DNA from: Clostridium sp.
GTDB taxonomy: Bacteria > Bacillota > Clostridia > Clostridiales > Clostridiaceae
Direction: 5' to 3'
NCBI RefSeq assembly: GCF_051654825.1
Contig: NZ_JBOFYU010000035.1
Coordinates: forward strand, 2,081 to 66,080
DNA: 64,000 nucleotides
Shown here: positions 11,314 to 58,162 of the stretch, one piece after another
Layout: each line of letters starts with the position of its first letter
Position numbering within the stretch: the stretch's first letter is position 1
The notes under the pieces: generated by a model
Told to the model about the DNA's origin: nothing
The model's database searches: none
What the model saw: only the letters and a program-made list of their open reading frames with translations
Program-made: the position numbers and the translations under genes

Positions 11314-11315
11314 AT

Positions 11316-11519
11316 AAAGCTAGCTGACCTGGATTTTGACCCCACACTCGCCTACTGGAGCTTTTGCTACCCGGACTTAACCTCTCACTACTCACACTCT
11401 CAACCTAAGTTGGTAGGACTAACATCTATACCGCACCGTGATCATTAGAATCTTTGCCTAACTTACGTGGATCGTTTCGCCTGCGACTGGCATCGACTTT
11501 CATCCACAGACCTAGCTTT
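11316..11519 (-). ncRNA. raiA: raiA motif structured non-coding RNA, about 204 nt
   Basis: GC-enriched island closed by AAAGCTAG/CTAGCTTT; conserved segments GAAAGTCGATGCCAGTCGCAGGC, ATCCACGTAAG, GGCGAGTGTGGGGTCAAA; typical position between comFC and hpf. Confidence 0.9.
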
Positions 11520-11527
11520 ATATAAAT

Positions 11528-18023: not shown

Positions 18024-18126
18024 TTCTTATCTTGCAAATATAATTTGCTGGAATTGGCACCTTTGTGATATTCACAGGTTGCCGGGTTTCATAGGGCCCT
18101 TTCCCTCCACCTCTCTGGATAAGAAC
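18024..18126 (-). ncRNA. SAM-I (S-box) riboswitch
   Basis: TCTTATCCAGAGAGGTGGAGGGAAAGGGCCCTATGAAACCCGGCAACC...GGTGCCAATTCC...GATAAGA upstream of metK. Confidence 0.97.
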
Positions 18127-18356: not shown

Positions 18357-18441
18357 TGGTGGGGGAGGACGGATTCGAACCATCGAAACGAAACGTAACA
18401 GATTTACAGTCTGCCCCCTTTGGCCACTCGGGAACTCCCCC
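18357..18441 (-). tRNA. tRNA-Tyr(GTA)
   Basis: Cloverleaf, CTGTAAA anticodon loop, long variable arm, encoded CCA. Confidence 0.97.
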
Positions 18442-18446
18442 ATTAT

Positions 18447-18521
18447 TGGAGCTGGCAATAGGAATCGAACCTACAACCTGCTGATTACAAGTCAGCTGCT
18501 CTACCGTTGAGCCATGCCAGC
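18447..18521 (-). tRNA. tRNA-Thr(TGT)
   Basis: Cloverleaf, CTTGTAA anticodon loop, encoded CCA. Confidence 0.97.
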
Positions 18522-18547
18522 ATATTATTTGCTTTTAATTATTTAAG

Positions 18548-18623
18548 TGGTGGGCACAACAGGGATCGAACCTGTGACCCTCTGCTTGTAAGGCAGATGC
18601 TCTCCCAGCTGAGCTATGCGCCC
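18548..18623 (-). tRNA. tRNA-Val(TAC)
   Basis: Cloverleaf, CTTACAA anticodon loop, encoded CCA. Confidence 0.97.
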
Positions 18624-18637
18624 TTAAATTTATAAAA

Positions 18638-18722
18638 TGGTGGGGGAGGACGGATTCGAACCATCGAAACGAAACGTAACAGATTTACAGTCTGCCCCCT
18701 TTGGCCACTCGGGAACTCCCCC
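18638..18722 (-). tRNA. tRNA-Tyr(GTA)
   Basis: Same sequence as 18357-18441. Confidence 0.97.
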
Positions 18723-18731
18723 ATTTTATAT

Positions 18732-18806
18732 TGGAGCTGGCAATAGGAATCGAACCTACAACCTGCTGATTACAAGTCAGCTGCTCTACCGTTGAGCCAT
18801 GCCAGC
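18732..18806 (-). tRNA. tRNA-Thr(TGT)
   Basis: Same sequence as 18447-18521. Confidence 0.97.
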
Positions 18807-18823
18807 ATATTCTTAAGTTTTAA

Positions 18824-18908
18824 TGGTGGGGGAGGACGGATTCGAACCATCGAAACGAAACGTAACAGATTTACAGTCTGCCCCCTTTGGCCACTCGGGA
18901 ACTCCCCC
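18824..18908 (-). tRNA. tRNA-Tyr(GTA)
   Basis: Third copy of the same sequence. Confidence 0.97.
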
Positions 18909-54660: not shown

Positions 54661-54686
54661 AAATTCACCTCTAATCATGCATTTCT

Positions 54687-54716
54687 TATTTTATCCATGA
54701 TTATTTATTATTATTC
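54687..54716 (-). promoter_or_regulatory. Putative SigF/SigG-type promoter of cphB-cphA
   Basis: GAATA-15 nt-GGATAAAATA. Confidence 0.45.
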
Positions 54717-54800
54717 AATAACATTTAATTTACTATAAATAAAAAGCTATTTAGCATTATAAATGCTAAATAGCTTTCTTAAAATTTAGTTATTAACTTA

Positions 54801-56381
54801 TTAAAATATAGCTCTTCCAGGAATTATTATCTTATTCCCTGCTTCTAATTCAGTTTGGCTTTCCATATCATTTATCTTCATTAATTCTTCAATTGTTGTC
54901 CCATACTTCTTAGCTATATCCCAAAGCTTATCGCCTTCACCTATTGAGTAAATAATTACTGAAGCATTTTTCTCTTTTTTACCTTCTGCTCCTTCAGTTA
55001 TATCTACTACCCATTTCTTATTAACCTTATAACATACTTTAGATGTAACACATATAGTAGCTCTTATAGCTATTGTATTAGCTTCTATAGTTGCCTCAAT
55101 ATTTTCTAAGGTTGCTTTAGCGATGACATCCATTCCCTCTTTTGCATTCTTAATATCTATAGTAGCTCCAAATGGAACTTCTCCATTAATCATTCCATAG
55201 CAATTCTCTTCATCTGATGTTTTATATAATACGTTAACCTTTATTACACCCTCAACTTTTACCTTATCTTGTTCTACAATCTTATCTATTACTATTGGAG
55301 AACCTGATGTGCAAATTATTTGCTCAATCTTTTGGTTTTCATCCTTTAAGTACATATTATCTTTAACCATAACTTCCATTGAATTAGTTCCATGGATTAT
55401 TCCAATTTCATTATTTGATTTAACTAAATCAATAGCCATACTTGGTGAGTATGCATCATCTAGCAATTCAATTTTTTCTTTTGAATATACTTTCGCTTCT
55501 CCATTTATTAAGAACTCTACATTTACAACTCTATTTTCACCTAAATCATCTGCTGAAACGCTACATTCACTATTTTTTATTCCTAAATTCATAGTGCTTA
55601 TCATTTCATTACTTGCACCAACTAATTCCTCTTCCTTAGATAAATATACATCTTCATGTAAACTTACCACTTCCTTTGTTTCTTTTCCTTTATACAATAC
55701 TTCTATCTTACAGTAACAACCAATATATACTTTATCTTGTCCTAATTTAAATTCTTTTTTATGAAGATACATTGAGCATTTTAGAATTTCATCTATTTCA
55801 GGCTTATCCATAGTAACCTTTATCATAGTTTTTCCCATAAGCTCTAAATCTTTTTTACCTTTTATACCATTAACTATTTCCTCTTTTTTAAGAACTTGAA
55901 TGTCTTCTTTTCCTTCAATATCTTTTACATACTCAATATCACCTTTTTTATATAATTCCCACTTTAGTGAAAGTAAACCGTCTATTCCAACTTTTCTTTC
56001 ATTCATCCAGCTTACTTCAATATGTTCTACTTCACATTCTACTTCGCATAACATTTTATGTTCATCATTATCCAACTCAAGATAATTTGCAAACTTTTCA
56101 GTAAATACTACTGAATGTATCTTACTTGATGGAGAATCTGAAGATACTTCTTCTTTTGGTAAATAAAAAACTGTATAGTTTAATTGCCCCTCTACCATTA
56201 CTTTATCTCCAACTATTTCTTTGTTGGTTATATTTGCTTTAGTATCGACACCTAAAACTTCTTTCATATCTGGATGAGAATCTCTTATTAAATACTCACC
56301 TTTTAATACATGATTAGAAGAACTTTCCCTAAGTAATTGTTCATATTGAATATTTTCTTTGATTACATCTATTTGTGACAT
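54801..56381 (-). CDS. SPOCS (DUF3794) repeat plus LysM spore coat morphogenetic protein
   Basis: Three repeated SPOCS-like blocks; C-terminal GDKLWDIAKKYGTT LysM. Confidence 0.85.
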   Translation of the reverse strand: MSQIDVIKENIQYEQLLRESSSNHVLKGEYLIRDSHPDMKEVLGVDTKANITNKEIVGDKVMVEGQLNYTVFYLPKEEVSSDSPSSKIHSVVFTEKFANYLELDNDEHKMLCEVECEVEHIEVSWMNERKVGIDGLLSLKWELYKKGDIEYVKDIEGKEDIQVLKKEEIVNGIKGKKDLELMGKTMIKVTMDKPEIDEILKCSMYLHKKEFKLGQDKVYIGCYCKIEVLYKGKETKEVVSLHEDVYLSKEEELVGASNEMISTMNLGIKNSECSVSADDLGENRVVNVEFLINGEAKVYSKEKIELLDDAYSPSMAIDLVKSNNEIGIIHGTNSMEVMVKDNMYLKDENQKIEQIICTSGSPIVIDKIVEQDKVKVEGVIKVNVLYKTSDEENCYGMINGEVPFGATIDIKNAKEGMDVIAKATLENIEATIEANTIAIRATICVTSKVCYKVNKKWVVDITEGAEGKKEKNASVIIYSIGEGDKLWDIAKKYGTTIEELMKINDMESQTELEAGNKIIIPGRAIF

Positions 56382-56532
56382 ACTATCCCTCCCACAGAAT
56401 ACCTAATATTATTTATATTTGCACTGCTATATATTTATTCATATTTAACCTGAATGTTTCCACATTCTCTTTATCAAAAAAGTAAAACGTTCTTTTTTTT
56501 TCTTCAATATTTGCTTTCGGATTAAGACTTTT

Positions 56533-56539
56533 TGTCGAA
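56533..56539 (+). promoter_or_regulatory. Possible Spo0A box
   Basis: TGTCGAA exact match; a 7-mer is weak evidence alone. Confidence 0.35.
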
Positions 56540-56585
56540 TTAAATTCTTTTTAATTGTTTTTATAATATATTTTAAAACTTAATG

Positions 56586-56614
56586 TTGACATCAGTAGAA
56601 ATATGTCGTATTAT
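56586..56614 (+). promoter_or_regulatory. SigA promoter with no downstream ORF
   Basis: TTGACA-17 nt-TATTAT. Confidence 0.7.
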
Positions 56615-56620
56615 AAAGAT

Positions 56621-56708
56621 GGTTATTGACCATATAACCTCTCATAAATTCTCAATACCCTTTTATACCATAGTTGAAAGATGGAAACCCACCATCTTTC
56701 TTTTTTTT
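56621..56708 (+). ncRNA. Candidate trans-acting small RNA, about 88 nt
   Basis: Promoter, 6-bp 5' hairpin, C/U-rich single strand, 9-bp terminator stem followed by T8. Confidence 0.6.
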
Positions 56709-56767
56709 ATAAATATTTATATATGTTATATATATTAAAATAAAATACTATTTATGCTTAATTACAT

Positions 56768-56802
56768 AAAAAAAAGAATCTCGCTAAGCGAGATTCTTTT
56801 TT
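56768..56802 (-). terminator. Terminator of veg
   Basis: AAAAAGAATCTCGC/GCGAGATTCTTTTT. Confidence 0.8.
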
Positions 56803-57037
56803 ATATAGCAAAATATAATTGCACAGTCTTTGTCAATACATCTGAGTAACTGTATGTAACAGTTCTATCATTGTCAGTTTCTAATCTTACTACAAAAATA
56901 CTTGGATAAGTACTTTCAATTACTCCGTTGTTTACTAGGATCTTCTTTCTTCCACCATTTGCTTTAAGAGTTACTTTTTCGCCTAAGTGATCCTCTATGT
57001 CTCTCTTTATAGTGGCAATAGTTTTTAACTTTTCCAT
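56801..57037 (-). CDS. veg: Veg family protein
   Basis: LKANGGRKK...G....TYPSIFVV...TYSYSDVLT. Confidence 0.93.
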   Translation of the reverse strand: MEKLKTIATIKRDIEDHLGEKVTLKANGGRKKILVNNGVIESTYPSIFVVRLETDNDRTVTYSYSDVLTKTVQLYFAI

Positions 57038-57060
57038 ATAAACACCTTCTTTCTGTATTT

Positions 57061-57130
57061 ATTATACACTTATTTCCTTTTTATGTCAATCAAAATTTAC
57101 ATTTTACCACTTTTATAAGCATTTTGTCAA
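57061..57130 (-). promoter_or_regulatory. Tandem SigA promoters of veg
   Basis: TTGACA-17-TATAAT (57089-57061) and TTGACA-18-TAAAAT (57130-57101). Confidence 0.75.
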
Positions 57131-57277
57131 TGTAAACTTTTAACTTACTATAAATAACTTTCCTCTATTATTATTTCTAATATATTTTTTTTTATTCAGA
57201 TTATTAATATTTATTTGCAATACAAAAATTGACTGCACACATACTAAACTTTTGTTAGCAGCCAATATGATTATTAC

Positions 57278-58162
57278 TTATATATATTTTGACTTAGGGT
57301 ATCCTTCCCTGTACTTCCCTCTAGTTTGAAGCCCTCCTATTCCCTTTATGCCCGTAATTGTATTATCAATCACATCTGTTATAGATACAACTTTATCTAT
57401 TCTTGTATATGCAATTTTTTCACATACAAATACAGGATCTAAACAATGAATCAAAACTCTATTTGGTGAACTAGCAAAATTTGCTCCTGCATCTAACATA
57501 CATTCATAACAACTTTGGCAAGCTCCTGCAAAAATAACCAATTCATCATAGCTTGAATTATAATTTCTTAATAGTCTCACTGCTTCCATATAGTACTTTG
57601 AATTTCTATAATTATCTAAGTTTAAATAATCATCTGTTGTTTTAAGTACACCATCATGCCCAGTTAAAACAACTATATCTGGTTTTACTTCCTTTACTAG
57701 TTCTAAAATTTTTTCGGGCTGCTCTCTTTCCGATATCGATACACCAACTGCTTCTAGAGATAATTGTTTATATACCTTTAAACAAGTTTCTAAATATTGA
57801 CTATCACCATCAACATGAAGAATTTTTCCTGGTCTCCCAAACATTAAATTTTTATCTGTAGATGCCTTGTGATTTTTATTGCCTCTATTTTCTATACATT
57901 TCATAGCCTCAGTATCCCCCCTAAGAGATATAGCTTTTTTTATAGCAGAGCTCACCCTAGTATTTAATATTTTTTCCTTTTTTCCAATAAAATTATCATC
58001 TACTTTTTCTAAATCATCCTTTTTTGAATCTGCAATAATCCTAATACTTATTCCTTTTAAAATATACACTGGATTACCATCTTCATCCTCTCTTATATCG
58101 ATAATTTTAAAAGTAATATCCTTATCATATGATTTTCTAACAACTAAGTCACCTATAACCAC
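57278..58162 (-). CDS. yabG: Sporulation-specific protease YabG
   Basis: GD.V.RKSY..DI.F, LTGHD, FAGACQS, GANFASSP.RVLIH. Confidence 0.95.
   Translation of the reverse strand: MVIGDLVVRKSYDKDITFKIIDIREDEDGNPVYILKGISIRIIADSKKDDLEKVDDNFIGKKEKILNTRVSSAIKKAISLRGDTEAMKCIENRGNKNHKASTDKNLMFGRPGKILHVDGDSQYLETCLKVYKQLSLEAVGVSISEREQPEKILELVKEVKPDIVVLTGHDGVLKTTDDYLNLDNYRNSKYYMEAVRLLRNYNSSYDELVIFAGACQSCYECMLDAGANFASSPNRVLIHCLDPVFVCEKIAYTRIDKVVSITDVIDNTITGIKGIGGLQTRGKYREGYPKSKYI

Follow-up and report, generated by a model that had tools for sequence, protein, structure and literature searches.

We describe a gene for a small RNA (sRNA) in the spacer between sipL, a spore-coat gene, and veg, within a stretch of 64,000 nucleotides of Clostridium sp. 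DNA (the window). To judge by its sequence, the locus is with high probability a genuine sRNA gene, and the predicted RNA of ~88 nt is very likely an important regulator. The reading that we favour, at a probability of roughly 0.5, is that of a trans-acting sRNA which would base-pair through a long G-free seed, would be controlled at its promoter by Spo0A, the master regulator of sporulation, and would have its seed mimicked by phages.

The gene lies on the plus strand. The first-pass annotation had described here a promoter, a 5′ hairpin, a C/U-rich tract and a terminator hairpin followed by eight T, together with two Spo0A-type boxes, one 46 nt before the −35 and one at the −10 (in fact overlapping it), and all of these elements are present. 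The features of the locus are the following.

56533-56539, plus strand: Spo0A-type box TGTCGAA, exact, 46 nt upstream of the −35
56540-56585, plus strand: A/T-rich stretch, UP-element-like, upstream of the −35
56586-56591, plus strand: −35 element TTGACA (promoter scan)
56604-56610, plus strand: 0A-like box TGTCGTA, which shares two bases (56609-56610) with the start of the −10
56609-56614, plus strand: −10 element TATTAT, at a 17-nt spacer from the −35
56621-56708, plus strand: predicted ~88-nt RNA, beginning near G56621 and ending with the T-run
56621-56639, plus strand: 5′ hairpin GGUUAU-UGACCAU-AUAACC, present in the minimum-energy fold (arms GGTTAT 56621-56626 and ATAACC 56634-56639, loop 56627-56633)
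56638-56667, plus strand: core tract CCTCTCATAAATTCTCAATACCCTTTTATA, common to the host RNA and phages
56640-56675, plus strand: G-free, C/U/A-rich single-stranded region of 36 nt, the putative seed
56676-56700, plus strand: intrinsic terminator stem GAAAGATGG / CCATCTTTC (terminator scan)
56676-56708, plus strand: terminator as a whole, with a 9-bp stem, the 7-nt loop AAACCCA and T8
56701-56708, plus strand: T8 run after the terminator stem
~56768-56800, no strand assigned: bidirectional terminator of veg, outside the sRNA (fold −22.2 kcal/mol, z = −6.6)

The promoter (56586-56614) is of the sigma-A type and matches the consensus at 11 of 12 positions in the promoter scan. Weak promoter-like matches numbered 27, against 22.8 expected in shuffled sequence; that the unit stands beyond chance is therefore argued not from the pattern scan but from its near-invariance in >100 species between flanks that have fully diverged. 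The sRNA folds at −16.4 kcal/mol (z = −3.3 versus shuffles), and the 36-nt tract at 56640-56675 is unpaired in both the minimum-energy and the centroid fold. At its 3′ end, 56676-56708 was the sole strong plus-strand terminator match in a scan of 3.5 kb. The first-pass annotation had also remarked that the T-tract exists on the plus strand only and that veg is already provided with a terminator of its own. Both remarks hold: no T-run follows the 56676-56700 hairpin on the minus strand, and the veg terminator at ~56768-56800 is flanked on its two sides by an A-run and a T-run, so that the 56676-56700 hairpin is not that of veg. The gene veg is convergent with the sRNA, and no same-strand gene lies downstream of the sRNA terminator. 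Besides Veg, the neighbouring genes encode SipL (three SPOCS domains and a LysM domain), YabG, an S51 peptidase and a CotS-type kinase.

The locus was said to hold no open reading frame. The sole frame found, of 51 aa (56583-56738), begins within the −35 and reads through the terminator, and the ATG near the sRNA start site is unconserved, with TTGG, AAGG or GAGG in other species; a small protein as the product of the locus was rejected on these grounds. With its own promoter and intrinsic terminator, its non-coding sequence and a conservation confined to the transcribed unit and the promoter elements, the locus has the appearance of a stand-alone, trans-encoded sRNA gene, independent of sipL and veg, as had been proposed.

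The gene is strongly conserved in its relatives, where promoter, seed and terminator are all kept. A DNA search recovered the element in 23 of 24 genomes of the same genus, with a body ~97-100% identical and flanks that could not be aligned. When one genome per species was scanned with the 19-mer TCATAAATTCTCAATACCC, at least 120 loci were obtained and, among the matches listed, nearly all belonged to the Clostridium family. The carriers listed include Clostridium butyricum, baratii, ljungdahlii, magnum, argentinense, drakei and paraputrificum, as well as Sarcina, Haloimpatiens, Eubacterium multiforme, Caloramator, Thermobrachium and Fonticella. In 111 of the 120 loci, again among the matches listed, the sRNA stands in the sipL-veg spacer, encoded on the other strand from its two neighbours. 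Across these loci SipL is 23-64% and Veg 53-91% identical. The RNA body is 97-100% identical across >100 species while its flanks diverge completely; conservation sets in 7-8 nt past the −10, where the start site is predicted, and does not go beyond the T-run. One might suppose that there is no functional RNA at all and that the promoter- and terminator-like elements are insulators or leftovers between genes, since weak promoter-like matches are common in AT-rich DNA. This we regard as hardly credible: an intergenic block of 88 nt is here better conserved than the flanking protein genes, the −35 and −10 are conserved with it, its boundaries are precise and phages carry independent copies.

Once differences in T-tail length are set aside, the few variable spots of the RNA body are position 1, position 5, the hairpin loop, the length of one T-run, a 4-nt linker and the terminator loop. 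Changes in the 5′ hairpin fall in the loop (positions 7-12) or form a G·U pair (A5 to G). Among 28 distinct sequences, region 56640-56675 differs only at T41 (length of the T-run) and in the linker (52-55); single changes in it occur in a small number of more divergent members of the family. The terminator stem is kept through one compensated pair (G:C to A:U) and G·U changes, and its loop varies. Covariation is almost absent because so little of the RNA varies, and the structural argument consequently rests on where the variation falls. A long-range helix between nt 1-9 and UCAAUACC, suggested by forms of the RNA in the sister family (see below), was disfavoured, and the local 5′ hairpin preferred, because several species break the long-range helix at G8 without compensation.

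A covariance model of the sRNA, scored on 195 genomes of the Clostridium family, found exactly one full-length copy in 120 of them, spread over 41 of 59 genera. In a 300-genome sample of the class (177 genera) the same model found the RNA absent outside the Clostridium family. Where a genus of the family is without the sRNA, sipL and veg stand only 97-145 nt apart. The genome from which the window comes has a single copy; in a few species there is a second full-length copy, which lies in an ordinary chromosomal context outside mobile elements. A search for plasmid copies found none.

Turning to the promoter, TTGACA and TAWWAT at 17-nt spacing are kept in ~110 species, with variable sequence in the spacer. 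T/A runs just 5′ of TTGACA recur in nearly all species, and the A/T-rich stretch at 56540-56585 may work as an UP element. Of the 111 unique promoters, 74 have a TGnCG(A/T)A box next to the −10; three more lineages have instead a box just after the −35, with TATCG beside the −10, which brings the spacer box to 77/111. When every 7-mer in the 107 nt before the −35 was counted without bias at the 111 loci, TGTCGAA/TTCGACA came out as the most enriched word (33 loci against 0.21 expected from its genome frequency, in species which are related and so non-independent), and the remaining top 7-mers were overlapping variants of it. Its positions cluster at −53 and −63 from the start of the −35, position and orientation differing between clades. 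In the whole genome TGTCGAA occurs only 73 times. TGNCGAA boxes in or near the promoter, a mark expected of a direct Spo0A regulon member, are thus present at the sRNA promoter, and the tie to sporulation and Spo0A that the first-pass annotation had considered possible gains support at the level of motifs, from the upstream and the spacer boxes alike. Placed beside the −10 of a promoter that otherwise follows the consensus, such a box points to repression by Spo0A~P. The TGTCGAA at 56533-56539 sits in the spacer of the divergent sRNA and sipL promoters, and the 0A boxes, lying amid the two, could serve sipL. The sipL promoter itself looks like a mother-cell promoter of the sigma-E-like type.

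The same locus is occupied by another sRNA in the Caloramator-type sister family. There, in several genera, the sipL-veg spacer encodes a C-rich sRNA that resembles RoxS/RsaE: a consensus promoter of the sigma-A type is followed by UUGUUGAU(A)ACC...UUUAUCCCCCUA...GCUGCCAAACCCAUAACCCCA, with UUUAUCCCCCUA...CCAAACCCAUAACCCC as its C-rich part, and then by a terminator. A C-rich tract is a hallmark of the anti-Shine-Dalgarno (anti-SD) sRNAs of Firmicutes. In Caloramator, Thermobrachium and Fonticella we found a chimera, made of the 35-nt block GACCAUAUAACCUCUCAUAAAUUCUCAAUACCC followed by the C-rich part of the sister-family form. The shared locus and the chimera indicate that the Clostridium RNA is the local counterpart of a C-rich, anti-SD-like sRNA. 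The shared tract looks like a loop expansion of an ancestral 5′ hairpin, and the Clostridium terminator seems to resemble an ancestral internal hairpin, GAAAGC..GCUUUC.

Comparison with known families returned no direct relative. Rfam 15 cmscan of 56300-57300 at E<=10 gave no plus-strand match at 56586-56708, the only hits being weak terminator-like matches on the veg terminator; over the whole window, at the gathering threshold, Rfam recognized only raiA, FMN, SAM and tRNAs, all elsewhere than at the sRNA. RsaE/RoxS (RF01820), the C-rich anti-SD sRNA of Bacillales, had no match in 56300-57300 (E<=10) or in the C-rich loci of the sister family (E<=5), and these loci matched no other Rfam family either. 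It nevertheless bears several points of likeness in design to the present RNA: ~90-115 nt in length, transcribed from its own sigma-A promoter, closed by an intrinsic terminator, conserved over a large group of Firmicutes, and equipped with unpaired C-rich, G-poor motifs that pair with Shine-Dalgarno regions, as is proposed here. The sister-family sRNA, with CCUUUGUUUAUCCCCC and ACCC/CCCC motifs, is much like RsaE in this respect. The Clostridium RNA has CCUCUC, ACCC and the loop ACCCACC and no CCCC, where the sister-family form has CCCCC, ACCC and CCCC; the two or more unpaired CCCC/UCCC motifs that define RsaE/RoxS are therefore not found in it. RsaE/RoxS differs further in its repeated CCCC, in its regulators (ResD, Rex and SrrAB, as against the predicted Spo0A) and in its locus, and we know of no phage copies of RsaE.

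A full-text literature search for the seed, as DNA or RNA, found nothing relevant, and no functional characterization of this RNA came to light; Clostridium surveys of 2011 and 2013 may contain a prediction. The RNA sr8384 was considered as the same RNA and rejected, as it is different and species-restricted. We thus regard the RNA of the window as a new sRNA family, which earlier computational surveys of Clostridium may have predicted.

Evidence on the working part of the RNA comes from phages. Prophages of related genomes carry exact copies of 24-31 nt of the tract, and overall some 20-29 nt are kept exactly by phages. A scan of IMG/VR with a 17-mer gave 43 contigs, ~33 of them with true tract copies, and the cultured C. 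perfringens phage phiCp-B has a variant of the tract amid tRNA-like genes. The part common to the phages is limited to (C)UCUCAUAAAUUCUCAAUACCC(UUUUAUA), always in the same sense as the phage genes. In prophages the tract lies 3′ of the gene for a small regulator whose fold is that of sigma-70 region 4 (Pfam; phrog_36), and 5′ of the terminase and portal genes and of variable small genes. On its 5′ side stands a tRNA (Asn, Lys, others), a conserved structured element of ~110 nt or a GGUUAU hairpin, and several copies come directly after a tRNA. The phage GGUUAU hairpins keep the stem and have other loops, with one compensated stem, GGUUAA/UUAACC. On the 3′ side are unrelated terminators, a non-terminator hairpin preceding the next tRNA, or the DUF3800-VIII RNA (RF03075, 64 nt). 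The latter occurs 3′ of the tract in 5 of the 17 viral loci scanned and in one prophage, either directly or ~110 nt away (L193), where simple terminators stand elsewhere; it is a separate hairpin motif, and the RNA of the window has no match to RF03075. An Rfam scan of the phage copies gave nothing besides tRNAs and DUF3800-VIII. All the versions that were folded leave the tract unpaired, with a stable hairpin after it.

Retention of the unpaired tract alone in phages speaks for it as the active part, working at the level of RNA. Invariant in the host and the sole part copied by phages, the unpaired tract singled out by the first-pass annotation would be the functional core. The phage copies have, on the folding models, the minimal seed-plus-hairpin design of a processed sRNA. 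Could the tract act instead as DNA, the RNA being incidental? It would then be an operator, bound by the phrog_36 regulator or a host factor, or a hot spot of recombination between phage and chromosome. The prophage tract does lie always between the phrog_36 gene and the packaging genes, the expected site of late control. We consider a DNA-level role quite improbable, however, as the conserved block of the host is exactly a transcription unit, from start site to T-run, with a consensus promoter, and as the distance between tract and promoter in phages is filled by hairpins of very different length. Moreover, some phage tracts lie between tRNA genes with no promoter nearby, the tract is always on the coding strand, and none of the 111 host loci has an inserted prophage. 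An attachment site of an integrative element was rejected in the same way, because the copies do not mark the ends of prophages and nothing interrupts the host locus in the 111 loci.

The composition of the tract suggests what its partners might be. Its motifs CCUCUC and ACCCUUUU are complementary to purine-rich ribosome-binding regions, and the tract in reverse complement looks like the translation start of a clostridial gene (AAAGGG...GAGAAUUUAUGAGAGG). Targets were searched with complementary words of at least 9 nt, G·U-tolerant runs of at least 13 nt and a fuzzy antisense search, and none of these found an antisense site to the tract of at least 15 nt in the genome. Against 3225 predicted translation start regions, the seed scored no better than shuffled seeds, either in duplex energy or in ungapped pairing score. 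An antisense search of the phage loci returned no clear target, genus-wide matches to the 13-mer complement GAATTTATGAGAG were mostly the sRNA itself or protein-conserved coding sites, and visual inspection of the spo0A leader against the seed showed nothing notable. In a co-variation test on the clade with the altered seed UUCGCAGUACCC, no matching change was seen elsewhere. The start of the S51 peptidase (cyanophycinase) gene has an 11-13-nt match to the seed in this genome and in one other; it was rejected as a target, the match being unconserved. The proposal of a base-pairing sRNA with an anti-SD-like seed thus stands in one part: CCUCUC and ACCCUUUU are anti-SD-like, but no target rose above the shuffled-seed controls and none was conserved.

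A local action on the neighbouring gene was also weighed. Apart from a 6-nt insertion, the seed resembles the sipL consensus leader in reverse complement (11+5 bp), and by pairing there (UUUAUGGGAGG and GGUAU) it could block the ribosome-binding site in vegetative cells; shut-off of the sRNA by Spo0A at the onset of sporulation would then lift the block. The arrangement of the locus would suit such an action, sRNA and sipL being divergent neighbours in 111/120 loci (among the matches listed) with 0A boxes between them. We judge it improbable all the same. The energy of the duplex reaches only the 4th-6th percentile of translation start regions with the consensus leader, and the 15th in this genome. 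The leader is identical in genera without the sRNA, so that its conservation is independent of the RNA. Transcription of sipL would be expected in the mother cell only, when the sRNA promoter would be off, and phages have no evident reason to copy a seed specific for sipL.

The same null searches bear on another reading, in which the RNA would mainly bind a protein, to sequester, scaffold or guide it, the tract with its hairpin being the recognition site that phages copy; Hfq, a cold-shock or KH-type protein, a ribonuclease or Veg itself might be the partner. No mRNA target came from any search run, and the gene adjoins veg throughout. Nearly all positions, the terminator stem included, are invariant in >100 species, which is unusual for a constraint on the seed only, and the exact phage copies of the tract are longer than a usual seed. 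On this point the near-total invariance of the 88 positions, stems included, exceeds what a seed needs, and a protein partner fits it at least as well as an mRNA does. We still hold protein binding as the main role to be the less likely reading, though a serious rival. Phages swap both hairpins freely (for a tRNA, other terminators or the DUF3800-VIII RNA) and have only the linear tract in common; the orthologous C-rich sRNA of the sister family has the look of an RNA of the classical anti-SD pairing type; the synteny with veg is that of a generally conserved gene block, which persists without the sRNA; and the analyses here point to no protein partner. Base-pairing is, as a prediction, the model that fits best by anatomy and ancestry.

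The anatomy of the gene, its conservation, synteny and distribution, the phage copies and the enrichment of 0A motifs are observations. The base-pairing model that we infer, which extends to transcription, to the direction of Spo0A control and to the purpose of the phage copies, would run as follows. The near-consensus sigma-A promoter and the A/T-rich region upstream of it would drive strong vegetative transcription from ~G56621. The 5′ hairpin would shield the 5′ end of the RNA, and the intrinsic terminator would close it. Between them, the unpaired 36-nt G-free tract would serve as a long seed for purine-rich mRNA, typically in the Shine-Dalgarno/start-codon region, its CCUCUC and ACCCUUUU motifs mimicking the anti-SD sequence, and pairing would alter the translation or stability of several targets. 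At the onset of sporulation, Spo0A~P bound to the −10-adjacent box and the upstream box would turn the promoter off. Temperate Clostridium phages, by placing the same seed before hairpins of their own, at the 3′ end of an early/regulatory transcript or in the spacers of tRNA arrays, would produce a mimic reaching the same targets. The fullest version of this model, a core, Spo0A-controlled global sRNA that temperate phages mimic by expressing an identical seed of 20-30 nt, from the spacers of tRNA arrays or the 3′ ends of operons, in order to take over the host regulon, is at present doubtful.

Parts of this design have precedents. Region R1 of GcvB in Proteobacteria is a strictly conserved single-stranded seed of ~30 nt that lies between hairpins and has many translation-start targets. 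The present tract is likewise a long, conserved, single-stranded seed of skewed composition between hairpins, whereas GcvB has a G/U-rich seed and C/A-rich targets, depends on Hfq and belongs to another sequence family and phylum. DicF, AgvB/AsxR (EHEC) and 3′ETS-leuZ are short RNAs of phages or spacers, composed of a seed and a hairpin and released from longer transcripts, and the phage copies described here are placed comparably, behind tRNAs or at operon 3′ ends. Known prophage sRNAs, however, are sponges or have seeds of their own, whereas the phage copies here carry the seed of a core host sRNA in the same sense, which makes them a mimic rather than an antagonist. We know of no description of same-sense mimicry of the seed of a host sRNA by phages. 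With regard to sporulation, SpoX and SpoY of Clostridioides difficile are ~80-nt sRNAs tied to sporulation initiation that act on spo0A mRNA, the seed of SpoX being at its 5′ end (PMC10267692). They differ from the RNA of the window in family and in locus.

To the Clostridium family belong major toxin producers as well as acetogen and solvent strains used in industry, and to our knowledge a role has been assigned to very few of its small RNAs. Evolutionary remodelling of an sRNA gene can be followed at the sipL-veg locus, from the C-rich form through the chimera to the present form. The phage copies delimit the functional core of the RNA without an experiment and, if they are mimics, they would represent a new route, seed mimicry, by which phages tap host regulation; if so, a prophage seed could seize entry into sporulation or vegetative physiology during lysogeny or induction. 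As the sRNA is near-identical in all but a few of its carriers, a single probe, a single knock-down design and a single reporter would serve in many species. Near-unchanged in at least 41 genera, placed among sporulation genes and preceded by a promoter with Spo0A motifs, this predicted RNA is a prime candidate for a central regulatory role in the switch from growth to sporulation.

The spacer between sipL and veg in the sister family, the Caloramator-type relatives of the Clostridium family (loci L223, L229, L231, L232 and L230), carries a C-rich sRNA gene without annotation. Its layout runs from a promoter, TTGACA-17-TATAAT, through UUGUUGAU..UUUAUCCCCCUA..CCAAACCCAUAACCCC to a terminator. 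This RNA resembles RsaE/RoxS, and no match to Rfam models was obtained for it at E<=5.

Several RNA features were observed around the shared tract, the core of the window's sRNA that is copied in phages and prophages. DUF3800-VIII RNA (RF03075) stands immediately 3′ of the tract in phages L187, L178, L209, L200 and L027/L046, and about 110 nt downstream of it in L193. In all of these it has the phrog_36 regulator gene on one side and terminase genes on the other; among the neighbouring ORFs, inspected by their N-termini only, no DUF3800 gene was evident. Prophage loci L029, L031-L035, L169, L177, L190 and L197 show a conserved promoter-like block, TTGAAG-17-TAGAAT followed by an invariant TGTAA(A/G)T, placed just 3′ of the tract's terminator and preceding the first late gene or moron. 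Some 110 nt upstream of the tract, viral and prophage loci L169, L172, L177, L180, L190, L202 and L146 share a conserved element, GGGTTAAGTTAATTACCTTCGAGATTATGGAATTA..GATAGGTGCTGAGTGT..ACACTAAAATCTC, which is apparently a structured RNA. A second such element (..CTATTGACAGGCGGTAAGTCCTCACCTACAGGCACATAGTCGAATAG..) is situated inside tRNA arrays. Neither element has a match in Rfam.

Complements of the putative seed, the G-free tract of the sRNA, were also seen in other genes. Two unrelated sugar-metabolism genes of the window's own genome have in common a near-identical start region, TTAGGAGGTATTGAGAATGTTTTT, which holds a 12-nt complement:

C68 ~9828, minus; C261 ~19275, plus: GH42-like beta-galactosidase and SIS-domain protein genes, named from N-terminal sequences only

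In three genomes of the genus (L274, L286, L287), a 13-nt complement lies within the coding sequence of a subtilisin-type (S8) protease and coincides with the conserved DTGIDYLNxEFMRED motif. This complement probably reflects protein conservation and not an sRNA target.

Rfam gathering matches in the window comprise:

2226-2342, minus: FMN riboswitch
11315-11520, minus: raiA RNA
18024-18125, minus: SAM riboswitch
18360-18908, minus: six-tRNA cluster

Two upstream regions of the window carry conserved patterns:

56382-56460, minus: upstream of sipL; strong pattern, in the same place in ~95 species
54679-54740, minus: upstream of the S51 peptidase (cyanophycinase-like) gene; conserved in orthologous loci

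The true start of the S51 peptidase is probably the second ATG (MSEKINGN), to which the SD sequence GAGGTG belongs. Upstream of this gene, in the window and in the orthologous loci, the pattern is TGAATAA..N..GGATAAAATA, whose sequence suggests a sporulation-type promoter. That of sipL consists of (T)GAATAAA / TCATAAA, then ~15 nt, ATATAAAT and the leader AGUAGGUAUUUUAUGGGAGGG; it resembles a mother-cell promoter of the sigma-E/K type, followed by a leader that is short and conserved.
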